35,733 nucleotides of DNA from an uncultured Spartobacteria bacterium (lineage in GTDB: Bacteria > Verrucomicrobiota > Verrucomicrobiia > Chthoniobacterales > UBA6821): NCBI GenBank assembly GCA_903831635.1, contig CAIKYN010000414.1:1-35733 (forward strand), read 5' to 3'. How positions within the stretch are numbered: position 1 is the first letter of the stretch; the number at the start of each line of letters is the position of its first letter. The notes beneath the pieces were generated by a model. That model did not search any database, had not been told where the DNA came from, and was given only the letters and a program-made list of their open reading frames with translations. The translations under genes were made by a program, and so were the position numbers. This document shows positions 11,525-33,578 of the stretch, in pieces.

Positions 11525-11686
11525 TTAGGTCAGAGGATGCTTTGGAGGTTTGGCATTAGGAGACACAAACTGCCTCTTGTAACCGATGGCATGGACTTCC
11601 CTGAAAGATGCCAACAATTTCTCAGCCGGTGTAAATTGCTTGAAAACAAGTTTCTTCTGCTTTTTTCCTGAGTTCCTGAGTTCCAT
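11525..11686 (-). CDS. Possible small basic protein (53 aa) starting MELRNSGKK
   Basis: Below the ORF-track cutoff. ATG 11686-11684, TAA 11527-11525. Its first 8 codons coincide with the repeated ATATGGAACTCAGGAACTCAGGAA box, so this may be a DNA motif rather than a gene. Confidence 0.25.
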   Translation of the reverse strand: MELRNSGKKQKKLVFKQFTPAEKLLASFREVHAIGYKRQFVSPNAKPPKHPLT

Positions 11687-11695
11687 ATTAATTTC

Positions 11696-12567: not shown

Positions 12568-12882
12568 TTAGGAGGCGGTGTAAGCGACGGCCTCCACCTT
12601 GGTCTTGGGGAAATCGTCATTGGTCTCGTCCTGACTGACCGAAGTCACCGTCAAGGTTCCAGCCGAGATCGTGGTAGCTCCGGCAAGTCCGAAAGTGGCC
12701 GATCCGACGATCTCCAAAGAGACTTTGCGTTCTTTCATTGGAACCGCATCGGCTGCCACGGTATTGCCCGATTCGTCTCGGTAGGTCTTGATGGTGGCCG
12801 TGGTCGTGTCCGTGTAGCTCTGGACATTGCCCGTGTAATTGGTGGAGATCGGTGGGGTTCCGACGCCGAAAGTTGCGCTCAT
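12568..12882 (-). CDS. Small tail tube-like protein, paralogue 1
   Basis: ORF track, 104 aa, beta-rich. Preceded by structured element A and a CTTTTGACAC-CCCTAGGG motif 14 nt upstream of the ATG. Confidence 0.6.
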   Translation of the reverse strand: MSATFGVGTPPISTNYTGNVQSYTDTTTATIKTYRDESGNTVAADAVPMKERKVSLEIVGSATFGLAGATTISAGTLTVTSVSQDETNDDFPKTKVEAVAYTAS

Positions 12883-13020
12883 ATCCCTAGGGGCCGTGTC
12901 AAAAGATGCCGACGGTGGTCGGCAGCTTAGTCATGCGAGGCAAAAGCCGAGCAGTCCCGAGATCACCAGATCGAGGGATGCCTGATTGGGGACAATCGGC
13001 AGACAAACTTATAATAGCCA
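12883..13020 (-). repeat. Structured intergenic element, copy A (possible cis-regulatory RNA)
   Basis: Homologous to 18961..19100 in the same orientation. Consecutive hairpins on the transcribed strand, with substitutions confined to loops and one stem fully compensated (see findings). Confidence 0.7.
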
Positions 13021-13449
13021 TTACGCCACCACTGGGGTCACTCCGATCTCGATCTCGATGTCGATCACATGACGTTCGTGATCGATCTGCTCCCGGACGG
13101 TCATGCCTGCAAGGCCCGCATAGCTCCAAGAGCTCTGGGATGTGTTAAACGCTTCGGCCAACGGGGAAGATGGCCCCTGACCATACTGGTCGAACAAGAC
13201 GGCAATCTGGGTCGCCCGGGTGCGGTGCAGTGCCAGATTGGCACCGGCTGCAGGGGTCGTGAGGCGAAGCGGGCAGGTGGATTTCCAAAGGCCAAGAGCC
13301 GAGCGCTGGGCACTGGTCGCCTCCACGATCAACAGGGGCTGGCTGTTGGGAATCTGTTCGGAACTTGTCCCTGGATGAATTGCCAGTCCCGAAAGGAAGC
13401 TCTGGGAAGAGAGGATCCCGATCAAGCCGAGTTCGATATCTGCGGTCAT
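13021..13449 (-). CDS. Head-tail connector / tail completion protein (by position)
   Basis: ORF track, 142 aa. Last gene of the connector block before the tube-like genes. Confidence 0.5.
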   Translation of the reverse strand: MTADIELGLIGILSSQSFLSGLAIHPGTSSEQIPNSQPLLIVEATSAQRSALGLWKSTCPLRLTTPAAGANLALHRTRATQIAVLFDQYGQGPSSPLAEAFNTSQSSWSYAGLAGMTVREQIDHERHVIDIEIEIGVTPVVA

Positions 13450-14361: not shown

Positions 14362-15258
14362 TTAGGCGGAGACGATGCGCTTGAGAGCGGCACCCTCGCC
14401 CTTGCCGTAGCCGTAGTTGGCCTCGATCACCATCTGGACGGTGTCCGAGCCGGGGATCGGGTACTCGCGGTACTCGAGGGTGAGTCCGTTGTCATCCGTT
14501 GCGGTGACGTAACGGGTGATGCGGTCGTCCGCAGGAGCGATCGGGGCGAAGGCCACAAGCGCGGCGTCGGGCAACGTGGCGAAACCGACAAGGTTCTCGC
14601 TGTTGGCAGGGATGTTCGGGGTGACGAACACGTCCAGACCGGCGATGTGGGTAAGAGCACCCTTGAGCTTGACGTCCGCACCGGCCTGACCCATGGCGTT
14701 CCAGTTCGCAATGGAACTGTCCTTGAGAAGAGCACCATGGTAGGTGCTGGAAAGCACGAGAGAACGGTTGGCGACGGGCCAGTAGCTCTGGTTGATGGAG
14801 GTGACGATGTCCGCGATGTCCGTGAAATCGAAAGCGGTCGGAGCTCCGGTGGAAACGGCGCTGCCATAGTTGGCGGCGGTCACGACACTCAGGATGTCGA
14901 TCACGACGTCATGGGCGAGAGCTTCGGCCTGACGATCCATGAGCTTCTCCACCGAGAGGTGGGGCTGGCGGGCAAGCTCGTAGCCGGTGATATTGAGCGC
15001 CTGATATTTGCGCTTGTTGATGACGACCGGACGGCTCTGGACAGTACCGGCATCGGCGCTGTATGAACCATTGAAGTCGCTGGAAGCGGTACCCTGAAGG
15101 GGATAGTAGGGAACGGTGATCGTGTCATTACCCTGGAGAGGGATGCCACGGTAAACTGTCGAGAAAGCGTTAATCGGGGCCAGAGTACGCTTGAACGCCA
15201 GAAGGGCGTTTTCAAGGATAGCCTGTACCTGAAGATCGCTGGCGATGGAGTTGGCCAT
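14362..15258 (-). CDS. Major capsid protein
   Basis: ORF track, 298 aa. Follows the portal-protease-scaffold order and is followed by a strong terminator. No exact family assigned by eye. Confidence 0.75.
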   Translation of the reverse strand: MANSIASDLQVQAILENALLAFKRTLAPINAFSTVYRGIPLQGNDTITVPYYPLQGTASSDFNGSYSADAGTVQSRPVVINKRKYQALNITGYELARQPHLSVEKLMDRQAEALAHDVVIDILSVVTAANYGSAVSTGAPTAFDFTDIADIVTSINQSYWPVANRSLVLSSTYHGALLKDSSIANWNAMGQAGADVKLKGALTHIAGLDVFVTPNIPANSENLVGFATLPDAALVAFAPIAPADDRITRYVTATDDNGLTLEYREYPIPGSDTVQMVIEANYGYGKGEGAALKRIVSA

Positions 15259-17049: not shown

Positions 17050-18627
17050 TTAGGCTGCGGATGTTTGGTCGTCGGAGGTTTCAATCACCTCGGGGGGTTG
17101 CTGAACTTTCAACTCGGGGTAGAGGTCACTCATGGACAAGCCGCGACTCTCCATCTCCTTTTTCCTCCAAAGGGCAAAATCCATTTCGCGGGAAACCTCT
17201 TCCTTAGCGTCCTGACCTTTGAGATTGTAAAGACGCTCGGTCGAGATCAGACCGGTGCGGTGTTGCTCCAGATAGATGCGACCATCACGACCGAAGTCGC
17301 AGGTGATCTGCTCGGGAGGAACCCATGAGTGCGACCAGAATGCGGGATCCTGACACTTGCGGAGGCGTCCTGCCTTGATCTCCTTGGCAATGGTGTAGAC
17401 CCAATCCCGCGAGAGCCAGGTATCGACAAAGTTGGCCTGTTCACTGGCAATCCATGCCTGGGCATCGGCCAGCACATACCTGACCCCTGCTCCGCCAAAT
17501 TTGGCAATCGACCAACCGAGGGCGTCCGAAATTCCGAGGCCCCAGCAGCAATCGCGAATCAAGGAATTCTCAACGAACTCGACGCTGTTCGGGTGGGGCC
17601 GCTGATCGAGTAATGTCCTGATGTCGTAGCCAGGGGGAACCTCTTTGATCTCGCCACCCATGCCGAAGACTTCGCTCGTGCGAATGCTTTGCAGGTTGCC
17701 GTTGGTATCCGAGCCGACGACCTGATCGGTCTGATACTTGCCAGCCAAGGCGTCCATGATGCCGGGGGTCGCTTCCTTATCCGAGGAAGCAAGGTAATAG
17801 CCGATCTGGTTACTGAGCTTGATGCCCTGCATGACCGAGGCATTCAGCTCGGTGATGTCGATCAATTTATTAACTGCATGGGCAAGAGCCGAAACGCCAC
17901 GGAACTGGCCGGGGCTTTCCTGATTGCACAACCAGACGACATTCTCAGCACCGACCCGGGTGGTCTTGGAGAAATCGTCATCGAGGAAATAGAATGCCTG
18001 GGCGCGACCGAGGCGATCCACGGCGATGCCGTCGTTCATTTTCTTGTCGAGGGTTCCGATCGGTTCCCCCACCTGAGTGCCGGAATAGAGACGGCGAAGT
18101 GCTCCACCGCTCTGGCTCTCGCTAAAAACGATGGCGGCATCGCCGTCTTTCTTCTGAGTCAAATAAGCGAGACGCTGCATCTGGACTCCAGTGAGCCGAG
18201 CAGAAACGTCATAGGTGGAAGCGCTGCGGGCGCGGCGGTTGTACGCGGCGTCGGCCAGGGCATTCCATTCGCTGTCGCGGGTCGTGGCCTGCGGGGTAAA
18301 TCCGTTGCCCACGACCATGTTCGTAATCGAGGTGAGCAGGCGGCGGGCCAGACCCATGTTGGCCATGAGATAATGCACCTTGCGGGCGATCTCGCGGCGG
18401 GTCCAGACGTTGATCTCATCCCGTGGGGAAAGTGTGGGCCAGTAGATGTACCCCCTCTGCATGGAAGGGACGGCGGCGTCGTAACCATACGCGGCCTTGA
18501 TCCGGGCGGGGCCGGTGCCTCCGGTCGTCCCGTTCGGAACTGCAGGCATGCCGGTGGGGGTGGAGGGGATCTTCGGGAGACCGCGACGGGTCGTTTGCCG
18601 TGTCGGGCGGGATGTCTTCTTGGCCAT
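17050..18627 (-). CDS. Portal protein, lambda (gpB) family
   Basis: ORF track, 525 aa. N-terminal basic tail, then ...YDAAVPSMQRGYIYWPTLSPRDEINVWTRREIARKVHYLMANMGLARRLLTSITNMVVGNGFTPQ... resembles the lambda-type portal signature. Lies downstream of a GpA-type terminase. Confidence 0.85.
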   Translation of the reverse strand: MAKKTSRPTRQTTRRGLPKIPSTPTGMPAVPNGTTGGTGPARIKAAYGYDAAVPSMQRGYIYWPTLSPRDEINVWTRREIARKVHYLMANMGLARRLLTSITNMVVGNGFTPQATTRDSEWNALADAAYNRRARSASTYDVSARLTGVQMQRLAYLTQKKDGDAAIVFSESQSGGALRRLYSGTQVGEPIGTLDKKMNDGIAVDRLGRAQAFYFLDDDFSKTTRVGAENVVWLCNQESPGQFRGVSALAHAVNKLIDITELNASVMQGIKLSNQIGYYLASSDKEATPGIMDALAGKYQTDQVVGSDTNGNLQSIRTSEVFGMGGEIKEVPPGYDIRTLLDQRPHPNSVEFVENSLIRDCCWGLGISDALGWSIAKFGGAGVRYVLADAQAWIASEQANFVDTWLSRDWVYTIAKEIKAGRLRKCQDPAFWSHSWVPPEQITCDFGRDGRIYLEQHRTGLISTERLYNLKGQDAKEEVSREMDFALWRKKEMESRGLSMSDLYPELKVQQPPEVIETSDDQTSAA

Positions 18628-18633
18628 AAAAAA

Positions 18634-18960
18634 CTAGGTTCGGACGAGTCGGTGACTGAAGTCGGCAATGACGGGTCCGGGCACTGCCGCAAGCTTGCTA
18701 TCTCCTGTCACTCCGGTGACAGCGGCCTCCATGAGGAGCTTCTCGACGGCGTAACCGATGACGCTCTTCGGGAACGTCACCTCACCCGAGGAATGCACGC
18801 CATCATTCCCCAATGTGGTCACTGTCACTTCCTCGGTCGCTTGCTGAAAAATCGTGTCAGCCAGGGCGGTCAACTGATTTACCGTCTGAGTCCTGCGGAG
18901 GTAGCGGGTGCAGTAGGTGACCTGTCCGTAATTATTAAGAGCCGAATAGTTCAGTGACAT
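18634..18960 (-). CDS. Hypothetical protein in the lambda gpW position (between terL and portal)
   Basis: ORF track, 108 aa. Preceded by structured element B and CTTTTGACAT-CCCCCTAGGGG 16 nt upstream. Confidence 0.5.
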   Translation of the reverse strand: MSLNYSALNNYGQVTYCTRYLRRTQTVNQLTALADTIFQQATEEVTVTTLGNDGVHSSGEVTFPKSVIGYAVEKLLMEAAVTGVTGDSKLAAVPGPVIADFSHRLVRT

Positions 18961-19100
18961 CGCTCCCCTAGGGGGATGTCAAAAGGCCGCTGGGAAGCGG
19001 GCTTAGTCATTCGAGGCATAGGCCGAGAAGTCCCGAGATCAGCAGATCGAGGGATGCCTGATCCGGGAGGATCGGCAGACAAAACCTTGGCACATGCCAA
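18961..19100 (-). repeat. Structured intergenic element, copy B
   Basis: An 82-nt block is ~89% identical to copy A by hand alignment. Same hairpin series, with the terminator-like hairpin built from a different stem sequence. Confidence 0.7.
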
Positions 19101-20882
19101 TTACTTTTTGGCGATCCAATGGGAGAGCACCGCCAGTTTCACGCAGTCGCCGTAGTGATCCTCGCGGATTTCTTTCCAATACTTTGTAGTCCCCCTCGGG
19201 GTGCGGGTCTCGAGTAACTGCTGTCCGGTGAGCCCATGGATGAGGGCAGCCGGTGCGTCGTCCGGTAGATGCAGGAGCGGGGCGAGTCGTTTCTCGATTT
19301 TCTCTAAATAGAGGCTGAGTTTCAGCGTGTAATCAACGTAGGTATGCAACACGAGGCCACGGTGGGTTTTCACCTGCGAGGTGCTCCAGGTGCCGAAGGA
19401 AGCGACGGAGCCCTTTGACGGCCAGAGCTTCCCCCGGCTGCGGACGCAAAGATCATATAGGCGGTCCGTTTGCCACCCTGAATCGACGATGCCGAAACCA
19501 ATGGGCCAGTCGGAGTCGCCGGTGCCCTTGTAGGTCTTCCCATTCAGGATGGGGAGGAGGTCTTCGGGAGCGAGGACGGTGCCGCAATCGATGACGGCGA
19601 TCTCCCCGTCGCGGGCCACCGCTGAGACGACCCAATGGGTCTGATCTTGTCCCGGATCTGCTGTGAGGACGAGGAATCCGAATTTCTCCAAAAGAAACGG
19701 GGGAATCTGACCGAGGCGGTATTCCTTGCACCGCAAGGCGTGAATTTTCTCTTCCTTCACATTCACCGTGCTCTCCTGATGCGGGAGTGCCATCCATCCA
19801 TTATTGTAATCCTGAAGGCCGAACAGATCGATGGACTCTAGGAATCGGACGGCAAGATTTCCAAAAGAACACTGAACGTCGGGAGAATAGAATGAATTCA
19901 GATGGTAAGACCGGCGTCCATAGGGGGCGGAAGGGTTGCGAGCGATCCATAGAGCTCCTTTTTTGTCCGCTTCCTTGAGGCTTGATCCCCGTTCGTGCCA
20001 TTGCTCAGGAGTCAACATCATGGCGGGCTTGTGATGGTCGCGAATCTGAAACTCACAATGGGGGCAGCGGTAGTGGGCGGACTGACGGACTTTCTCCTTG
20101 TCCCAGATGCCGTCCTTTCCTTTGGCTTCGGGATCCCAGATCAGGGTCTTATTCTCACCCTGTCCATGCTCAAAGGTGAACCGGCCTCCGCACTCGGGGC
20201 ATGGCACCTCAAAGTACCTCTGGTCTCCGGCTTGAAAATCCAACCAGAATTCGTGCTCGGCAGTGGTGGGTGTGGACATCTTGACCCGAAGGGATCGGGA
20301 GAAGGTCTTGGTGCGTTGTTCGGCGAGCTTCATAGCGCTCGATTCATCGGTCGAGGCACGGGCAAATTTGCAGCACTCATCGAGAATCAGCGTCTGGACG
20401 GGGCGGGATGCCAAGTTTGCGGGACTATTCGACCCGACCACGGTGGTCGTCTGGCGGGCAAACTGCATCTCGAGCGCCTTCATGAGGTCTTTATTTTCAG
20501 GCATGTGCGCGGAGAGGGCGGGATTGTCCTCGATCAGCGGGATCCAGCGGGTCTGACTCCATGAACGGCCAAGGGCCTCGGTCGGCATGACGACCAATGT
20601 GGGAGATGGGTCATTCACGAGCTTGTAGGCCATGCCCATCATGGAAACGGTGGTTTTCGCACACTGGGATCCCCAGCAGAGCGTGAGGTCGGTGCATCCG
20701 CTCTCGGGGTGGAACTGTTGAAGCGGCTCGCGCATGTAGGGCCGCAGGAGGGTGGAGAATCGACCGGGTTGATTCGGCGAGACGCGGGGGGAGAACTCAA
20801 TGTTCTCTTCACACCACGCGACAGGATCGGGCAACTCAGGCAGACTGAGATCCCCAAGGAACTCTCCCAAGAGATCGGTCAT
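19101..20882 (-). CDS. terL: Terminase large subunit, GpA (lambda A) family
   Basis: ORF-track frame 19101..21191. Start moved to ATG 20882-20880 (MTDLLGEFLGDLSLPELPDPVAWCEENIEF...), which forms an ATGA overlap with the terS stop. ...PGRFSTLLRPYMREPLQQF..., ...PTLVVMPTEALGRSW... and the CPECGG...RCPHCEF zinc motif fit GpA terminases. Confidence 0.9.
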   Translation of the reverse strand: MTDLLGEFLGDLSLPELPDPVAWCEENIEFSPRVSPNQPGRFSTLLRPYMREPLQQFHPESGCTDLTLCWGSQCAKTTVSMMGMAYKLVNDPSPTLVVMPTEALGRSWSQTRWIPLIEDNPALSAHMPENKDLMKALEMQFARQTTTVVGSNSPANLASRPVQTLILDECCKFARASTDESSAMKLAEQRTKTFSRSLRVKMSTPTTAEHEFWLDFQAGDQRYFEVPCPECGGRFTFEHGQGENKTLIWDPEAKGKDGIWDKEKVRQSAHYRCPHCEFQIRDHHKPAMMLTPEQWHERGSSLKEADKKGALWIARNPSAPYGRRSYHLNSFYSPDVQCSFGNLAVRFLESIDLFGLQDYNNGWMALPHQESTVNVKEEKIHALRCKEYRLGQIPPFLLEKFGFLVLTADPGQDQTHWVVSAVARDGEIAVIDCGTVLAPEDLLPILNGKTYKGTGDSDWPIGFGIVDSGWQTDRLYDLCVRSRGKLWPSKGSVASFGTWSTSQVKTHRGLVLHTYVDYTLKLSLYLEKIEKRLAPLLHLPDDAPAALIHGLTGQQLLETRTPRGTTKYWKEIREDHYGDCVKLAVLSHWIAKK

Positions 20883-21529
20883 GCAGGGATCGGATCTGAG
20901 GTGTCGTACTTGCTGAACTCTTTCTCGACGGCGGCCAGCTGGGGCGTGAAGCGGCTGCGCAGCCATTCCTGACATGCCTGGATGCCAAAAGCGGGGTCGA
21001 AACTGTTTGCCCGGGGGCCAACCTCGGAAGGCATGTTGGCCAAGACTGCTCGTATCGGTTGGATGAACCGACGGCGTAGATCGGCGATCTGGGAAGCAGG
21101 GACGAGACGACCGGCGGCGATCTCGGCGGTCTCTCTGGCTCGCTTGCTTTTGCGATAGCTCTCCTGGGCGTCTTTTTCGGCACGGCTCCATTGCGTTGCG
21201 TTGATGTCTCGGGAAGCCAGAAGTTCTCCATAGGTGGCGGCGACGCTTTGCCAGAACTGATAGGCTTCCCTTTCCATGCGACGGGCCTTTTCCAGATCGT
21301 CTCCACTATCCTCGAAGGGAGCCACCGGCGTTGCGTTGAGCGATTCGCAAGGGGAAATTTGACGTACAGGGGCGGCAGAGGTGCGGACGGCGGTGTTGGC
21401 CTGACGGGAAAGGAACTCAAGAAAAAGCGGATCCCGGCGCTGACGATGAAGCTGGGCCGTTCGCAGGGAGATATTTCTGGCCGAGGCATAAGCCTTCACA
21501 AGCAGGTGCTGGTCTCTTCCGTGTCGCAT
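20879..21529 (-). CDS. terS: Terminase small subunit
   Basis: ORF track, 216 aa. N-terminal HTH-like ...AYASARNISLRTAQLHRQR... Translationally coupled to terL. The overlapping 217-aa ORF in another frame is rejected. Confidence 0.7.
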   Translation of the reverse strand: MRHGRDQHLLVKAYASARNISLRTAQLHRQRRDPLFLEFLSRQANTAVRTSAAPVRQISPCESLNATPVAPFEDSGDDLEKARRMEREAYQFWQSVAATYGELLASRDINATQWSRAEKDAQESYRKSKRARETAEIAAGRLVPASQIADLRRRFIQPIRAVLANMPSEVGPRANSFDPAFGIQACQEWLRSRFTPQLAAVEKEFSKYDTSDPIPA

Positions 21530-23254: not shown

Positions 23255-23850
23255 TTGCCCTCCTTGAGCTTTTGGATCTCGTCGCGGAGATAGCGGAGGC
23301 AATGCAATAGATCGTCATTTTCACCAGCGTTTTCACATAGAACGAGGTGATATTCGAAAATATCCAGCGGCATCTCCTGCTTTGGCTCAACTACTAATTT
23401 ACTACTATTTTTTTTACGATTAGTAGTTGGCAACGGGCGGCGGGTGCGGATTCTTCCTGAAGTTTGAATTTTTTCGCCAACCCAAAGACTAAGAGCAGGA
23501 ACCCACCCTGCCATTGGTGAATTATACTGGTCGTCAGCTTCTATGATTTCCCCTTTTTCTTTTATGCGCCATTCTAGTTTAGGGCATATAGTTTCGTAGG
23601 GATGAAGCGTGTGCTTAGAATGAGGTTGACCGCAATCCTTGCATACCCTCTTGGTGACAGGTTTCTCTGGCGCGGTGCCTAGCGCGGCTATAATTCTGTT
23701 CCGCATCTCGCTTGCTGTGGATCTTGCCGCCCCTACCCTTGAATGCAGGGCCATAAATGACGCGCATTCGTCGAGAAGCTCCCTGAGCCTTGCGACCTCG
23801 TTGTCTGGACTTTTAGGTTCCTTGGGGAACTGGCTATATATATTACTCAT
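23251..23850 (-). CDS. Hypothetical protein (shares the NEVARLRELL motif with the upstream gene)
   Basis: ORF track, 199 aa. AT-rich relative to its neighbours. CKDCG...H..H Cys/His cluster. Confidence 0.5.
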   Translation of the reverse strand: MSNIYSQFPKEPKSPDNEVARLRELLDECASFMALHSRVGAARSTASEMRNRIIAALGTAPEKPVTKRVCKDCGQPHSKHTLHPYETICPKLEWRIKEKGEIIEADDQYNSPMAGWVPALSLWVGEKIQTSGRIRTRRPLPTTNRKKNSSKLVVEPKQEMPLDIFEYHLVLCENAGENDDLLHCLRYLRDEIQKLKEGK

Positions 23851-23855
23851 GGTCT

Positions 23856-24443
23856 TTATATCGTTCTTGGCGCGGGGGCGACTCGAGCTTTTAAGCCCTC
23901 AATCTCTTTACATGCTTTTTTATAGAGCCGATTTTCCGCGTTTCCATCGAACTCAATATAAGCAGGGAGATCTCGGATCTCCTCCGCAATTTCAATCGCT
24001 CGGTTCAGAAGCTCCCTGAGCCTTGCGACCTCGTTGGTTTTCTCCACGAGGTCGCGTTCTAGCTTCTCGGACAATTCCACCAAGTCATCATGAGTATGGA
24101 ATGAAAAAAAAACCGCATCCGTTCGAGGTGTTTCTACCTTATTTTTTTCTAGCTCCTTCCTAAACCTTGCCACTTCCGCTTCGGCCTTGTTTAGTTTCTC
24201 GTATCTGTTCACGCCTATCCTTTCGGCGTTTTCTTGAAGCTCCTTGATTTCCTCCCTCAGCTTCTCATTCTCCACCTCCAGCTCATGGCGCTTTCCGACC
24301 ACACGGAGCAGTTCAGGGACAACAGCACAGTCCTCATGCCCCCGTTTGAATGCCTCCTTCACCCGCTGCTCGACCGTGGGGAGAGTACCATCCTCATTAA
24401 GGAAACGGACACCCTCACTGTTCCAGTATTGTTCTGGCGTCAT
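23856..24443 (-). CDS. Coiled-coil hypothetical protein
   Basis: ORF-track frame (TTG start at 24461). Start moved to ATG 24443, preceded by GGGAGGTG 5 nt upstream. E/K/L/R-rich heptad-like sequence. Confidence 0.55.
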   Translation of the reverse strand: MTPEQYWNSEGVRFLNEDGTLPTVEQRVKEAFKRGHEDCAVVPELLRVVGKRHELEVENEKLREEIKELQENAERIGVNRYEKLNKAEAEVARFRKELEKNKVETPRTDAVFFSFHTHDDLVELSEKLERDLVEKTNEVARLRELLNRAIEIAEEIRDLPAYIEFDGNAENRLYKKACKEIEGLKARVAPAPRTI

Positions 24444-26080: not shown

Positions 26081-26476
26081 TTAATGGGACGCGATGGCAT
26101 GACGACCGCAGAAAAGCCCCTTCGAGCCCTTCCCCTTCGGATGGCCACATTGCCAGAGGATACCGAGGCCCCCATCGATCGCCCGAAGACATCGGTCTGG
26201 GTCATAGTCCCGCCCATAAGCACGACGGGCCTCTGCAGCCGTGCGAGGTTGCCGAGGAAAAGAGATCTCCTCATCGGACTCCATCTGCTTGATTTCGGGT
26301 TTGAAGCAAGTGAACGCCGCATGATTGGAATACAGCGCCACAGACTCCTTCACGACCGACGCCAGCAGCCGAGTCTCAGGCCGTGCCACCTCATGGCAGG
26401 TGACCGCCTTGGCACAATTCGTTCCTGGGCAATAGGCACGCTTGAGGATCGAAGCATTCGGGGAAACGGCACTCAT
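26081..26476 (-). CDS. Cys-rich putative zinc-binding protein
   Basis: ORF track, 131 aa. CPGTNC...C.H near the N-terminus and WQCGHPKGKGSKGLFCGRH near the C-terminus. ATGA overlap with the clamp gene stop. Confidence 0.5.
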   Translation of the reverse strand: MSAVSPNASILKRAYCPGTNCAKAVTCHEVARPETRLLASVVKESVALYSNHAAFTCFKPEIKQMESDEEISFPRQPRTAAEARRAYGRDYDPDRCLRAIDGGLGILWQCGHPKGKGSKGLFCGRHAIASH

Positions 26477-27687
26477 TTCCCACCTCCTGACGTGCGAATT
26501 GGCATCAGGACATGTGTCCAGCGGATCGGATTGCTTGGGCCGTGATCCGGCAACGTCAGCACCAGCGGATCCATGGGTGCCCCGGGGTAGTAAACCGCCT
26601 TGGCCGTCGGGATCGACTTGATGGCATCACGGAGGAACTGGGCATTCACCGCCACATCCTCCACACCCGGCGTTTCCACATCGACCTGGGCACTTCCCAC
26701 CTCCGGCTCCTCCAGCTTGAAGCTATCTTTCGAGATCACCAGCTTCGGCGTCTTGTCCTTGCCCGTGGTCACCGCAATAGCCAGCACCGAGGAAATCGCA
26801 TCCGACCACTCATCAGGCGAGATCGTGATTGCAGGACGAGACGAGAAATCAGGGATCACCGCCCGATACGTGGGGAATTTCCCCTCGACCAGATTCACCT
26901 TCAGCCAGGCATTATCCCACCAGAAGTTGAGCGCACGATGATCGGCTAAGAGCTTCACCACCTCGCCATCCGCATCAGCGGCCAGATCACGGATCACCGA
27001 GACCGCATCAGCAGGGATCAAGGCCCCACCCTCTTTTCCCTCACTCAGCACCGAGGCCCCGAGTTCCTTCAGATCCCGCTCATAGATCGAGAGGCGGCGT
27101 CCATCGGTAGCCACCATACGGACTAGCGACCCCTCCACCTCGAGCTTCAGCGACCGGAGCAAATAGCGCGACTCATCGCTAGAGATCGACTCCTGAACCC
27201 CCTTGATCATCCCCTCGAGGAAGCGACCGGCTACCTCCACCTTCAGCGCACCATCCTCCGGCACCATCGCCGGTTCCGAGTGAAACTCCGAAGCCGACAT
27301 TGAAGAGAACGTATAGACCGCCGAACGACCCGAAACTTTCAGCCCCCGGGGTGATAGCTCCATCGAGACCTCCGAGTCTTGCAAGAGCTTCGATGCCTCC
27401 AGCAACTTCTTGGCATTCACCAGACAGCTTCCCCCTATTGAGATATCACACGCGAACTGTGCCTTCATCCAGAGATCACCATTGGTGAAATCAAGCGTCA
27501 GATGCCCCTCCTCATCCGCCTCCAGGCGAACCGTATCGAGGATCGGTTGCTGATTCCCAGCCCGTGAGAGCTTAGTCAAACGCCCCATCCAGACCCGCAA
27601 GTCATTTGTTTTCAGTTTAAGTTTCACTTCTCTGCTCCTTTTTTTGGTTGTCGTTGTTAGTTGTTGGCCGTCTTTCCGACCTGTCAT
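26473..27687 (-). CDS. dnaN: DNA polymerase III beta sliding clamp homologue
   Basis: ORF track, 404 aa. ...LTKLSRAGNQQPILDTVRLEADEEGHLTLDFTNGDLWMKAQF...GSCLVNAKKLLEASKLLQDSEVSMELSPRGLKVSGRSAVYTFSSMSASEFH... parallels the canonical DnaN N-terminal pattern (PIL..V.LEA....L.L.ATD.E......V.AK.L..I...LP......L......L.I..G.S.F.L......EFP). Confidence 0.8.
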   Translation of the reverse strand: MTGRKDGQQLTTTTKKRSREVKLKLKTNDLRVWMGRLTKLSRAGNQQPILDTVRLEADEEGHLTLDFTNGDLWMKAQFACDISIGGSCLVNAKKLLEASKLLQDSEVSMELSPRGLKVSGRSAVYTFSSMSASEFHSEPAMVPEDGALKVEVAGRFLEGMIKGVQESISSDESRYLLRSLKLEVEGSLVRMVATDGRRLSIYERDLKELGASVLSEGKEGGALIPADAVSVIRDLAADADGEVVKLLADHRALNFWWDNAWLKVNLVEGKFPTYRAVIPDFSSRPAITISPDEWSDAISSVLAIAVTTGKDKTPKLVISKDSFKLEEPEVGSAQVDVETPGVEDVAVNAQFLRDAIKSIPTAKAVYYPGAPMDPLVLTLPDHGPSNPIRWTHVLMPIRTSGGGK

Positions 27688-29050: not shown

Positions 29051-29228
29051 TGCTACACTTTTTGCTACACTCGCCCGATTTTTGGGATTTTACTCTGTAA
29101 AAAGAGTGGCTGCCCCGCATGGATTCGAACCATGAATAATGGTTTCTCTGTCCGATTTCTTGTTTTTCTCTGTTCATGTCTGTGATGGTTTTGTGTTTTC
29201 TGTGGTTTTCTGCTACACTTGCTACACT
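29051..29228. other. attP-like attachment region: tRNA 3'-end core flanked by arm-type repeats
   Basis: TGCTACACT at 29051-29059, 29063-29071, 29211-29219 and 29220-29228, all in the same orientation. Two copies lie on each side of the core at 29107-29134. Directly upstream of int. Confidence 0.65.
29107..29134 (-). other. tRNA 3'-end fragment (T arm + acceptor 3' strand + CCA); probable att core
   Basis: Minus strand reads CATGG-TTCGAAT-CCATG-CGGGGCA-G-CCA: a perfect T stem-loop with the GTTCGAATC consensus, a 7-nt acceptor strand, a discriminator and CCA. No matching 5' acceptor strand (TGCCCCG) lies within 80 nt, so it is not a complete tRNA gene. Confidence 0.75.
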
Positions 29229-29234
29229 ACCGCC

Positions 29235-30269
29235 ATGGCTTCCCTTTATTCCCGAGCGCGATCCCCGTACTGGTGGATTGCTTTTTATGACGCGACCGGA
29301 AAGCGCAGGTGCGAATCCACCGGAAAGCGGTTGGACTCGGTTAAGGAAACGAGAGAAGCCAGGCAACTGAGGGCCTCGAAGGAGGTTGCCGAAATGAATG
29401 CTCCGGCCTCGGAGCGATCCACGCATGATCTTGGAAAATGGGTTCAGCCTTGGATCACAAGTCGCTTCGCTCAACAGGCCAACACACTCGAAAGCTACAC
29501 CCTCACTTGGAATCATTTGAAAGGGTTCCTTGACCTCAAGAGTATCCGAGCTGCCGAGCAGATCCGACGGGAGCACTGCTATGAGTACCTTGAACATAGG
29601 CAGAGAAAAGTCTGCCGAAACACGGCCATCCATGATCTTGTCGTCCTGCGGCTGATCCTCAATGAGGCCGTGAAACGCGGATGGATCACCCAAAATCCTG
29701 CCGCCAAACTGGGTCTCAAAAAAGATACGCCAAAGCTCAAACCGGAAATCACCGCACAGGAAGCGGCGATTATTGAAGAAAATCTCCGCAACCTTCCCGA
29801 ACGGATGCAGATCGCATGGAAAATTGCCTGGGCTCAAGGATGCCGTCTCGCCGAGACCGCCCTCCCCTTGAGCGATGTCGATCTGAAAAAAGGATTGATC
29901 ACCTTCACCCAGAAGGGAAACCGAAGACATACGACCCGCCTTCATCCCGACTTGACTCCCCTCTTCCGAAAGCTGAAACGGGAAAAAAAGACCCGCACTT
30001 GGGAGTTTTCCCGAAACGCCTCCAGAGACTGGGCAAGGGTTTTCAAAAGCCTCGGTCTTCCGCACCTGACCTTTCATTCCACCCGCGTGACGGTCATCAC
30101 AAAGATGGCCCGATCCGGTAAAGTGAACGAACAGCAAGCGATGAGGTTTATCGGTCATGCGTCAGAACAGGTTCACCTGATTTACCAACGGTTGAAGACC
30201 TCCGACCTTGATTCTTGCCTTGAGGCCCTCGGCGCACCTTCATTGAAGGGTAAGCCAAAGAAACCCTGA
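29235..30269 (+). CDS. int: Tyrosine integrase
   Basis: ORF-track frame 29139..30269. Start moved to ATG 29235 (MASLYSRARSPYWWIAFYDATGKRR..., a typical integrase N-terminus). Catalytic residues visible: ...AQGCRLAE... (Arg), ...HSTRVT... (H-x-x-R), ...IGHASEQVHLIYQRL (His, Tyr). Confidence 0.9.
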   Translation: MASLYSRARSPYWWIAFYDATGKRRCESTGKRLDSVKETREARQLRASKEVAEMNAPASERSTHDLGKWVQPWITSRFAQQANTLESYTLTWNHLKGFLDLKSIRAAEQIRREHCYEYLEHRQRKVCRNTAIHDLVVLRLILNEAVKRGWITQNPAAKLGLKKDTPKLKPEITAQEAAIIEENLRNLPERMQIAWKIAWAQGCRLAETALPLSDVDLKKGLITFTQKGNRRHTTRLHPDLTPLFRKLKREKKTRTWEFSRNASRDWARVFKSLGLPHLTFHSTRVTVITKMARSGKVNEQQAMRFIGHASEQVHLIYQRLKTSDLDSCLEALGAPSLKGKPKKP

Positions 30270-31582: not shown

Positions 31583-32497
31583 TTAGCGGGCCTCGTATAG
31601 CTCCACTTCTGCAAGTTTTTTCTCCCGGGAATCCTTATTGATGCCCGATGGATTATAGAATCTCATCCACCACGCACCCGTAGGCTTGGGGGGACCACCA
31701 CGCTCGACGTGCCACCCACCATAGCCATCACGGAACTCTTCTTTATATCCAGCGCCCTTGATATGCAACTGGCGGCACATCGTGATTTTATCATCTTGTG
31801 CGAGGCGTATGCGTTCAATGGGCATCATCCATGAATCATGTGTGTGCCCTGTAAAAACAAAATCGGCATCTGCCACATAAACCGCCTGACGGTTTGTCTG
31901 AATCACACCCCGGGTGACGGGGCCACCACCACCCGAACCGTGGAAATACCATAGTTTCTTTGAAGACCTTGCTGTGCCATAGGAACTACATTCAAAACGT
32001 ACATAGCCTGAATATCCCCCACGGCGAGCAATCCCGCCTTGAGCGCGTAATCGCTCACAGATTCTCTCCGTAATGTCGGTTTCGTGGTTTTTCTGAATTG
32101 CGCTCTCGTGATTCCCCACTCCACGTACGGTCAGGATGCTTTTATAAGGGTCCAACCATTCGGCAGCCGTCCTCACAATGGCATCGAGGTAGTCGCCGGT
32201 CATGTGCTCGGGGCGGATGTCCTTTTTGGAACTGCGTTTGTCGTATTTCCCCTGCATAAGACACCCAAAATCGCCTGCATCGATCACCGGCGCATTCCTT
32301 TCCAGCGCAAGATCGAGGTGCTTTTTCATCAGTTCCCGATCGCAATGCGGATTATCCCAATGGCAATCCGTCTGCAGGAGAACCCATTGCTCATCTCCGA
32401 CCCGAGGCAGATCAATGGAAATGACATGAACATTCCGAGAAGATTCCCTGAATTTCCAACTTGGTTTTTTACCGATGACAGATTTTTTGACGGTCAT
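31583..32497 (-). CDS. Calcineurin-like metallophosphoesterase
   Basis: ORF track, 304 aa. Ordered motifs D-C-H (LLQTDCHWD), G-D (IDAGDFG), G-N-H-E (VGNHES), H (FHGSG), G-H-T-H (FTGHTHD). Confidence 0.85.
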   Translation of the reverse strand: MTVKKSVIGKKPSWKFRESSRNVHVISIDLPRVGDEQWVLLQTDCHWDNPHCDRELMKKHLDLALERNAPVIDAGDFGCLMQGKYDKRSSKKDIRPEHMTGDYLDAIVRTAAEWLDPYKSILTVRGVGNHESAIQKNHETDITERICERLRAQGGIARRGGYSGYVRFECSSYGTARSSKKLWYFHGSGGGGPVTRGVIQTNRQAVYVADADFVFTGHTHDSWMMPIERIRLAQDDKITMCRQLHIKGAGYKEEFRDGYGGWHVERGGPPKPTGAWWMRFYNPSGINKDSREKKLAEVELYEAR

Positions 32498-33048
32498 GAT
32501 TCAGCTAAAAAGAAATCGAGATCGGCGTGAAGCTTCTCCACAGGGCCGTTATTGAGCAGGATCCGGTCGAAGGTGATGACCTGTTTCTCCGAGGAATGAG
32601 CTTCCACCGGGGCAATGCCAGGACGCTTGACCGAGATGATCGTGAACCCTGCTTGGTTGAGAGCTTCGGCTTCATTCTCAAAACGGAGGTCATCGACGAT
32701 TACCGAATGCCCTTCGTTGAGGTGGCGGGAGACTTTGGAGAGCAGGATCTTTCTCCAGATGTCGGTAGCGACCAGATCACGTCCCCATTCTGTTCCGAGG
32801 GATTGCATCAGATAGCGTGGGGAACGACCTCCTACCAAATCGCTGGGGGTTTCTTTGAGATTCCCATCCACCATCTCAACGGCTTCCATGAGACCGGCCC
32901 CGGCCTCGATCAGGAGACATCGAATCATCCGTTTGATCGGGGCGGCAAAACGAACCCTGCGAAAACCGTGCTTCCCGACGAGGTGGTCGGCGGCGGTTGA
33001 TTTTCCGCTGCCAGCTAAACCGCAGAGAGCGATGAGCTTGGGGGCCAT
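32494..33048 (-). CDS. Deoxynucleoside monophosphate kinase-like P-loop protein
   Basis: ORF track, 184 aa. MAPKLIALCGLAGSGKSTAADHL...FAAPIKRM...RYLMQSLGTEWGR... matches the phage dNMP kinase pattern as I remember it. ATGA overlap with the next gene. Confidence 0.7.
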   Translation of the reverse strand: MAPKLIALCGLAGSGKSTAADHLVGKHGFRRVRFAAPIKRMIRCLLIEAGAGLMEAVEMVDGNLKETPSDLVGGRSPRYLMQSLGTEWGRDLVATDIWRKILLSKVSRHLNEGHSVIVDDLRFENEAEALNQAGFTIISVKRPGIAPVEAHSSEKQVITFDRILLNNGPVEKLHADLDFFLAES

Positions 33049-33578
33049 TCCCCTACGGGCCGTGTCAATTCCATGGGTGAAAAGCTAAATATGGAACTCA
33101 GGAAATCAGGAAAATGGTCGGAGGAGGTTCAGGTCGCTCTGGTTTATCTATCCAGCCCTCAATGCCTCCCCCGATTAATGCTGGGATAGAAATGCCATAC
33201 GGCATCGACTCCCGCGCTGGAACCGTCGAAACGATTCCGTAACCTTTTCTACACGGAGCATGAGTCCCTCTTTGGTAGATAGGCAAAGATACAGCCGTGT
33301 CAATTCCCTGCAAAAATAAAGTAAGTAGCCACAAAATGCACAAAAGGCACAAAGGAGAAGAAAAAGGAATTTAATATGGAACTCAGGAACTCAAGAATGG
33401 ATCATGAGGAGCGCTATCCCTCACGGTTTGTTTAATGCGCGGCCTGATCAGGACTCCCATCCAATTTGGAAGGGACGGCATTTTGGAGACCACTTACTCC
33501 AATCTAGTTTCCGGTTCACTTCCCCGGCAGATGATCCCAAAGTTTTTTTTATGAGTTCCTGAGTTTCATATCAAAAAA

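Follow-up and report, generated by a model that had tools for sequence, protein, structure and literature searches.

The window, i.e., the whole 35,733-nt stretch of DNA from an uncultured Spartobacteria bacterium that was analyzed, carries the phage genes terL (19101-21191, minus strand; phrog_15, E = 1.9e-84), portal (17050-18627, minus strand) and major capsid protein (14362-15258, minus strand). An integrase is encoded at 29139-30269, no transposase was found in the window by gene annotation, and the phage is temperate. Two spacers of the late operon, 12883-13020 and 18961-19100, hold copies A and B, respectively, of an element of approximately 107 nt. Copy A lies between a 142-aa ORF (13021-13449) and a 104-aa ORF of the structural region (12568-12882, minus strand, from the ORF list), and copy B lies between terL and a 108-aa ORF (18634-18960); the minus strand carries every gene around both copies. 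The two ORFs flanking copy A, called "connector" and "tube-like" in an initial sequence-only reading of this DNA, gave no PHROG or Pfam match. Being located inside the operon, the phage copies are presumably co-transcribed with it.

A repeat search of the window returned a direct repeat of 83 nt (12925-13007 versus 19001-19083) with 89% identity and 9 mismatches, the longest in the window apart from a tandem repeat at the window start. The two homologous spacer elements of the same orientation described in the sequence-only reading are therefore real, and its count of nine differences in the conserved block was correct. Beyond the block, homology extends across a hairpin whose stems are unrelated and into CTTTTGACA. 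With a covariance model (R1), exactly two copies were found in the window, copy B with 114.9 bits (over 18979-19085) and copy A with 101 bits (over 12899-13009). On the minus strand, copy A as a whole spans 12901-13007 and consists of a 5' T-run (13007-13005), a core reading GTCTGCC...ATC (13004-12905), and a 3' T-run (12904-12901). Copy B spans 18981-19084, likewise on the minus strand, with its 5' T-run at 19084-19081, its core at 19080-18985 and its 3' T-run at 18984-18981. It begins at the T-run of a small hairpin just past the terL stop codon, TTGGCA-TG-TGCCAA (19087-19100, minus strand), which was seen in the sequence and scored as terminator-like in a terminator scan. Duplication of the element together with its downstream gene was considered and rejected, as the 104-aa and 108-aa proteins are unrelated.

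In predicted folds, each minus-strand copy formed a four-way junction (P1 to P4) followed by a hairpin, P5, and the T-run, with P2, P3, and P4 radiating from the closing helix P1 (GUC/GAC) via linkers of 0-1 nt. P1 of copy A (12930-13004, minus strand; predicted in the DNA fold) pairs GUC at 13004-13002 with GAC at 12932-12930. The three hairpins enclosed by it, all on the minus strand, are P2 (12979-13001), UGCCGAUUG-UCCC-CAAUC(A)GGCA, with 9 bp, one bulged A and a UCCC loop; P3 (12955-12978), UCCCUCGAUC-UGGU-GAUCUCGGGA; and P4 (12934-12953), UGCUCGGC-UUUU-GCCUCGCA. The terminal hairpin P5, including an AAG/CUU extension identified by covariation, occupies 12902-12928 (minus strand); it was terminator-like in the scan, its core GCCGAC-CACC-GUCGGC lies at 12923-12908, and the 7-pair stem of the scan, which includes a closing U-A, lies at 12924-12907. 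The corresponding minus-strand helices of copy B are P2 at 19077-19055, P3 at 19054-19031, P4 at 19029-19010, P1 at 19080-19078 with 19008-19006, and the P5 core at 19000-18987. From GTCTGCC to the end of P5, the core measures 96-98 nt, with P2 starting 3 nt from the 5' end and P5 ending 2 nt from the 3' T-run.

All four hairpins proposed initially (H1 to H4) were present in the predicted folds. H1 stood as a hairpin, while the 8-nt loop assigned to it did not, since these 8 nt comprise 2 bp and a loop of 4 nt (UCCC). As a result, most of the supposed loop substitutions between A and B are compensated stem changes. The claim that the substitutions were loop-confined, with seven of nine in loops, had to be abandoned: six of the nine differences make up three compensated pairs, three fall in loops, and none breaks a pair. 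Two of the compensated pairs are at the tip of P2 (U-A to C-G and G-C to C-G) and the third is at the base of P4 (G>U with C>A), and, of the loop differences, P4 has two and P3 has one. Retention of the last hairpin (H4, here P5) with different stem sequences in A and B was as initially described. Across copies, the P5 loop remained C-rich (UCCC, CCCC, ACCCC or CACC) while the stem sequence changed wholly, and the P2 loop was UCCC. P3 and P4 varied in length, and about one-quarter of the copies had an optional extra hairpin inserted at the bulged U of P1.

Covariation and the selected strand

Support for the fold came from two alignments, one of 43 distinct copies (A2; slid partners and shuffles as controls) and one of 75 further distinct metagenomic copies (A7). 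In A2, 87% of the cells were paired compared to 22-41% in the slid controls, a level of pairing and of apparent conservation that is inflated, as it is in A7, because most of P2 was prescribed by the patterns used for searching and A7 followed the structure of the model. Double changes were observed in 22 of 38 pairs in A2 (125 such cells versus 35 in shuffles) and in 31 of 38 pairs in A7 (256 versus 64), where divergent copies showed them in P2 as well. By helix, the apex pairs of P2 covaried (CG 38, GC 28, UA 3), double changes affected 7-9 of the 10 pairs of P3 (A2, A7), the base pair of P4 was G-C, U-A or A-U across copies, and P5 showed covariation at all 8 pairs (A7). P1 was invariant in A2, with one compensated variant, AUC/GAU, in L141:2280-2370. 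The AAG after P1 pairs with the CUU after P5, and this extension covaried as AUC/GAU in the phage copies L001, L048, and L123; no covariation was observed for an alternative pairing of AAG with the 5' UUU. Upstream of prfB, four orthologous copies differed by a compensated pair. The fold is thus firmly supported by more than 110 distinct homologues. With covariation in both alignments well above the controls, the suggestion that selection acted on a folded single strand, as opposed to a protein or a linear binding site, was confirmed when checked among the collected homologues. A small peptide starting at the conserved AUGACUAAG was also considered and was rejected, as the optional insertions are of mixed frame (+21, +20, +17, and +12 nt).

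RNA under selection normally tolerates G-U pairs far better than A-C mismatches. We attempted to assign the strand from wobble pairs, and no signal was obtained, neither in a smaller set (14 G-U versus 24 A-C) nor among 2394 paired cells (46 versus 47), 93% of which were Watson-Crick. Since G-U and A-C were equally rare, there was no support for RNA over single-stranded DNA (ssDNA). Using DNA parameters, the minimum free energy structure of either strand was the covariation-supported fold (z from -4.1 to -6.7). Furthermore, a UCCC loop on one strand is GGGA (GNRA-type) on the other, and conservation of the loop does not therefore identify the strand. The symmetry of the pairing is compatible with, but does not prove, selection for a folded single strand of DNA or selection restricted to the moment of propagation. 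The equality of G-U and A-C could instead reflect young, unselected transitions and not DNA-level selection.

Occurrence, empty sites, and insertion points

An exact pattern, run against 185,579 species genomes, gave 39 matches, all in MAGs of Chthoniobacterales/'Spartobacteria' (Verrucomicrobiota), with matches on up to six contigs per MAG. A metagenome scan added 110 further loci from lake and peat samples. In viral contigs, 17 loci were matched by a 5'-part pattern, some contigs having two copies, and approximately 10 distinct phage-contig copies were recognized. The phages carrying these are divergent from the window, with identities of 21-39% for TerL, 22-32% for the portal, and 33-49% for the 104-aa protein. 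Two other patterns were discarded: an over-loose one, TCTCGGGACTNCTCG, which hit >120 loci, mostly by chance, and a P2-only pattern, for which look-alikes were found in coding sequences of unrelated phages (L172-L176). The ends of the element read GTCTGCCGAT..TCCC..ATCAGGCA on one side and comprise the P5 hairpin and T-run on the other.

Searches for known relatives were negative. Rfam 15 gave no match in the whole window at the gathering score and none at E <= 10 in either region, in agreement with the initial statement that the element was not recognized as any named RNA family; for a host copy and for a second element (see below), only chance-level Rfam matches were obtained. ARAGORN detected no tRNA- or tmRNA-like cloverleaf, and blastn in distant mode against 50,697 phage records returned no match to known phages. 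Among approximately 150 loci, there was no ORF-interrupted copy that could represent an autonomous version.

We compared the two junctions of the window with those of related phages. Homologues of the 104-aa protein were found at 35 viral loci, with the element upstream in only 6, all of which had been found previously, and the eight closest homologues (75-85% identity) had no copy. In L181, the empty site before the 104-aa gene reads TAA-AAAAC-TTTGACA-CTCTGCCTAGGGAT-ATG, and that of L183 is similar; in L179 and L184, this junction holds a different structured module of ~110 nt. Five divergent phages have the element at the junction of copy A, before homologues of the 104-aa gene. For copy B, the 108-aa protein was found at 79-94% identity in six loci, none of which carried the element. 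In L214, the flanks are near-identical to those of the copy B site, the element is absent, and the window has a ~120-nt insert relative to an empty site reading ...AAAAAATAG-CC-TTTTGACATCCCCCTAGGGGAGCGATG, also given as TAG-CC-TTTTGACA. As the element is scattered through Chthoniobacterales genomes and the nearest relatives lack both copies, it is not a dedicated phage regulatory RNA, and the late-operon regulatory role implied by the sequence-only reading is not supported. Close relatives have a spacer of ~30 nt in place, and the "non-coding gaps" of this late operon are therefore not to be read as conserved phage regulators; they are host-type selfish DNA insertions.

Filled and empty sites were also observed in host DNA. 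Approximately 18 of the host copies occupy the tip of a GTAG-containing, REP-like hairpin of ~90 nt, and this GTAG hairpin is also present without the core; the apex of a solo hairpin (L150) reads GTAGGTTTTGCTACGG and the filled version (L171) reads GTAGGTTTG[core]TTTTGCTACGG. GTAG repeats are known in Verrucomicrobia (PMC3733652). In addition, a second element (TTGACGGCAC..., with UCCC-loop hairpins) was nested inside the first in L253, L255, L270, and L273; a further nested insertion of it was evident from comparing L313 with L135, and it also occupied sites held by the first element in other phages. Dispersed copies, filled and empty sites, and nesting are the general marks of a mobile repeat, and all were observed here. 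The element is thus multi-copy and interspersed in Chthoniobacterales chromosomes, i.e., a generic host repeat, an outcome that the sequence-only reading had itself named as one that would overturn it.

The element lands beside short T-runs, which belong to the T-tract that follows a terminator-like hairpin, to the apical loop of the REP-like GTAG hairpin, or to a TTTGACA motif before many phage genes. At 100 distinct sites, T-runs flanked both ends in 98-100%, with at least 2 T directly 5' of the core in 98% and 3-5 T after P5. Because their lengths differ (2-6 nt upstream of the core, 3-5 nt downstream of it), the T-runs are neither a clean fixed-length target-site duplication nor a defined target of the IS200/605 type. 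Terminal inverted repeats (TIRs), which mark a classical MITE derived from a DDE transposon, were absent in A2, where the 5' end, GTCTGCCGATC, is unrelated to the reverse complement of the 3' end (GGCGCGTGGGA). The core also differs from REP/REPIN sequences in being branched and without GTAG.

The TTTGACA motif lies 15 nt before the start codon of the 104-aa gene (12897-12903, minus strand) and, as located by a motif search, 17 nt before that of the 108-aa gene (18977-18983, minus strand). Since the empty sites of L181 and L183 contain this motif without the element, the GACA following each copy is phage spacer, and TTTGACA is a phage spacer and insertion target, not a part of the element. In the window, 7-8 start codons are preceded by the motif at a distance of 12-21 nt, and a small hairpin often comes before it. 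We rejected TTGACA as a sigma-70 -35 box, since no -10 element was present at 16-18 nt in any of 8 sites, and a Bacteroidetes-type TAnnTTTG was not conserved in the phage copies.

Gene context and RNA-level explanations

Gene context was assigned at 118 host and metagenome sites by a crude longest-ORF rule, giving 28 convergent, 10 divergent, 21 tandem-sense, and 12 tandem-antisense contexts. The element preferred the ends of genes, which are the sites of terminator T-tracts and REP-like hairpins, and its orientation bias was weak; a seemingly near-universal co-orientation with upstream genes weakened once the uninformative convergent contexts were set aside. The approximately 10 phage copies started 2-81 nt past a stop codon and were all co-oriented with the genes, an orientation that a strand-specific TTTGACA target would produce by itself. 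Intrinsic terminators have a G+C-rich stem followed by a U-tract of ~5-8 nt. At the 100 sites, the U-run was 3-5 nt, part of it pairing with AAG, while the position after genes fits a terminator. In a simple terminator scan, P5 of copy A passed and that of copy B failed, having 4 U after a 5-bp stem.

These observations bear on whether the element is a cis-acting module of the mRNA, i.e., a 3' structure resistant to exonucleases combined with a leaky terminator or processing point, with mobility explaining only its arrival. REP, SPRITE, and Correia elements set transcript levels in bacterial operons, and such a module would likewise adjust transcript abundance separately for terS-terL, head, and tail genes. 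The uniform orientation of the phage copies shortly after stop codons, the terminator-like P5 with U3-5 (passing the scan in copy A), and the location of most host copies just downstream of genes or between convergent pairs are in line with this, as are the hairpin followed by TTTGACA at other module boundaries of the window. Further hints of a function in place are the junction shared by five divergent phages and the prfB copies, which keep the fold by a compensated change; the element could thus work in place and not merely mark an insertion hot spot. However, the closest relatives lack it at both junctions, copy B failed the scan, the tandem contexts were only weakly biased toward sense, there was no excess of G-U over A-C, and a four-way junction goes far beyond what a terminator needs. 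On balance, we regard the cis-acting module as possible but rather unlikely.

We also considered a trans-acting small RNA (sRNA) or protein-binding RNA, released from 3' UTRs or intercistronic regions, of which the phage copies would mimic or exploit a host system; the partners of its UCCC loops would be G-rich ribosome-binding regions (GGGA), by pairing, or an RNA-binding protein specific for C. The UCCC loop of P2, the P5 loop that stays C-rich through complete change of its stem, and the terminal hairpin followed by a U-run all resemble an sRNA, GGGA or GGAG precedes several start codons of the window, and multiple copies are also found for LhrC (PMC4132741). Nevertheless, no conserved promoter was found before the copies, a considerable fraction of the host copies has antisense orientation relative to the neighboring genes, G-U pairs were not in excess, and the UCCC/GGGA symmetry makes the loop conservation strand-neutral. 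Copies per genome and nesting fit selfish DNA better, and we consider an sRNA improbable.

Finally, the element could be a leader responsive to a ligand or factor, a riboswitch or a processive antitermination RNA of the put/EAR kind, which would modify RNA polymerase and control the downstream late genes. Its architecture is riboswitch-like, with conserved junction nucleotides in the four-way junction and then a hairpin and U-run, AAG can pair either 5' (UUU) or 3' (CUU), the phage has two copies like putL and putR, and some host copies lie upstream of prfB and thrS. Here, however, the genes downstream of copies are functionally unrelated (prfB, thrS, pilT-like, and phage genes), the contexts of the 118 sites are mixed, and for the many copies located between convergent genes there is nothing to regulate. 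Processive antitermination is further contradicted by the absence of the element from the nearest relatives and by the many host copies without a co-oriented downstream gene. Only the AAG/CUU pairing covaries, UUU/AAG does not, and Rfam gave no match. The riboswitch and antitermination readings are therefore largely refuted by gene context and absence from relatives, and we consider a leader very improbable.

A probable mobile DNA repeat and comparison with known systems

Taken together, the two copies probably represent two independent insertions of a non-autonomous mobile DNA element of ~100 nt belonging to the gene pool of Chthoniobacterales and their phages. The best reading is that it is a TIR-less, bcr1-like repeat, a new family of an already known kind of element. 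The selected feature would be a folded single strand needed for the element's own propagation, and the simplest route would be via an ssDNA intermediate on which an enzyme of the host would act, perhaps one of the HUH/Y1 type known from IS200/IS605 or REP elements. An ssDNA route of the HUH type agrees with the presence of hairpins, the lack of TIRs, and pairing that is Watson-Crick only, whereas the flanking T-runs look like a duplication, which speaks against it; the mobilizing mechanism is entirely inferred. The phage copies would be dispensable passengers, with a likely side effect of placing a very stable structure and a weak terminator-like hairpin in the late transcript, both behind terL and ahead of the 104-aa gene. 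The persistently C-rich loops of P2 and P5, kept while the P5 stem changes, are not required by a model of transposition alone.

More tentatively, the element may represent an undescribed form of small-DNA mobility, with TIR-less units of ~100 nt, recognition of a four-way junction, targeting of T-runs, and shuttling between chromosomes of Verrucomicrobia and their phages, though we think this unlikely. A new partnership with an HUH enzyme or recombinase acting on ssDNA would fit, and so would a SINE-like route via RNA, with reverse transcription at T/A-runs primed by a structured transcript bearing a U/A tail. SINE-like priming would explain a T-run of variable length on one side. In a related scenario, some copies may have been domesticated as RNA modules with UCCC loops.

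In this well-sampled case (>110 distinct copies), strong covariation need not mean a functional RNA, and the G-U versus A-C symmetry test combined with a check of the nearest relatives separates the RNA and mobile-DNA readings. Moreover, the link that the element provides between this group of phages and Chthoniobacterales can help to assign hosts to uncultured viruses of fresh water and peat. With it, the few structured repeats that lack TIRs, bcr1 among them, gain a verrucomicrobial family.

Several known systems share features with the element. REP/REPIN sequences are imperfect GTAG-tagged palindromes of 20-40 nt, or inverted doublets of these. Like them, the element is extragenic, multi-copy, structure-dependent, and enriched after genes and between convergent genes, but its core is not a simple palindrome, has no GTAG tag and is also found outside GTAG hairpins, and the element is thus a guest inserted in a REP-like hairpin and not a REP itself. 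The structural features of palindrome-associated elements derived from IS200/IS605 (PATEs) and of other ssDNA elements mobilized by HUH enzymes, i.e., subterminal hairpins (here P2 and P5), no TIR, and the same Watson-Crick-paired fold on either ssDNA strand, were all observed, together with insertion beside a short specific motif. In contrast to PATEs, no TnpA, RAYT or TnpB with matching ends was present among the loci and the window inspected, the internal four-way junction is conserved, and duplication-like T-runs are found on both sides, while peel-and-paste transposition makes no target duplication.

Correia and RUP elements have TIRs and TA duplications. SPRITE, Correia/NEMIS, and BOX are repeats in transcribed intergenic regions that alter termination, processing or stability (PMC3184786); the element resembles these in its size (~105 nt), its terminator-like terminal hairpin, and its intergenic location, but shares no homology with them. 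UCCC motifs in loops, including the terminator loop, have been described for LhrC, RsaE, and RNAIII, LhrC being multi-copy (PMC4132741). The element likewise has C-rich UCCC apical-loop motifs, also in the terminal hairpin, and multiple copies; it differs from these RNAs in that no promoter or strand signature was found and in its mobile-repeat copy number and insertion polymorphism.

Of the described systems, bcr1 from the Bacillus cereus group is the closest in kind. It is a repeat of ~155 bp with 5-bp direct repeats, no known transposase, and a cruciform kept by compensatory changes, which is transcribed and whose distribution is not conserved between relatives (PMC3184786). Both are small (~100-155 bp) non-autonomous repeats with T-rich flanking direct repeats, a non-conserved distribution and a compensated, cruciform-like fold; there is no sequence similarity, and the two are from different phyla, so the likeness is one of kind only. 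The fold of bcr1 consists of two independent stem-loops, and its direct repeat is a defined 5 bp; the element described here has a four-way junction plus P5 and variable T-runs, and, unlike bcr1, it also occupies phage genomes.

Variants of the main element

An optional extra hairpin with GGCAAGCAAAG was found at the bulged U of the short closing helix P1 in about a quarter of the copies of the main element, the ~100-nt structured repeat of the late operon (columns 101-121 of A2, the alignment of 43 distinct copies; e.g., L134:1344-1471, L-numbers denoting the viral-contig, Chthoniobacterales MAG or metagenome loci collected for comparison). The stem of this module covaries, and the 21-nt module is what distinguishes the otherwise orthologous copies at L137 and L139. 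At the same bulged U, some metagenomic copies (the L219 group) carry a larger insert of ~85 nt. In a truncated derivative, the first hairpin, P2, is kept alone, followed by CCCTTGGGCGATTTTTTGAC and then by a second repeat (L001:2188-2290, minus strand; L221; L230; L266); at L221, this derivative adjoins a full copy of the main element.

A second structured repeat and host hairpins

The second structured repeat, ~100-110 nt long and distinct from the main element, starts with TTGACGGCAC, ends with ...CTTGTTTGAC, and had no match in Rfam. It contains hairpins with UCCC loops as well as a UUCG hairpin. It was found in both host MAGs and phages (L179:2385-2485; L184, with the same junction as L179; L076:2470-2530; L001:2119-2200, minus strand; host loci L133 and L159), and it also occupies phage junctions used by the main element. 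At L253, L255, L270, L273, and L313, it is nested within the main element.

The Chthoniobacterales MAGs contain long REPIN-like hairpins of ~90 nt with GTAG/CTAC (L142:3655-3750, minus strand; L161:100-305; L134; L141; L150), positioned directly after genes and in some cases in tandem. The apical loop of these hairpins is a frequent insertion point of the main element.

Other repeats and genes of the window

At its very start, the window carries a tandem repeat with three 147-nt units (1-441; identities 100%, 89%, and 68%). A perfect 30-nt direct repeat, AGAAGCTCCCTGAGCCTTGCGACCTCGTTG, is present at 23774-23803 and 24007-24036 (spacing 233 nt), and a 31-nt repeat, TTTTTTCCTGAGTTCCTGAGTTCCATATTAA, occurs at 11661-11691 and 33544-33574 (87% identical, 21.9 kb between copies), its CTGAGTTC core being tandemly repeated at 11653-11691. 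A homologue of the DNA polymerase III beta-clamp (26473-27687) and a deoxynucleotide monophosphate kinase (32494-33048) are encoded on the minus strand. A tyrosine integrase is encoded on the plus strand (29139-30269), and the phage is therefore temperate.

The TTTGACA heptamer

A Shine-Dalgarno sequence is often absent from host and phage genes. In the window, 7-8 genes have TTTGACA 12-21 nt (in one case 35 nt) ahead of their start codon (heptamers on the minus strand at 1338-1332, 5389-5383, 10874-10868, 12903-12897, 15840-15834, 16769-16763, 18983-18977, and 21551-21545), and the heptamer often immediately follows a small hairpin. No -10 box was found at promoter spacing from these sites. 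The equivalent spacers of related phages are also marked by TTTGACA, which may be a late promoter or start-region signal in this phage group. Two different inserted elements land preferentially at this heptamer.
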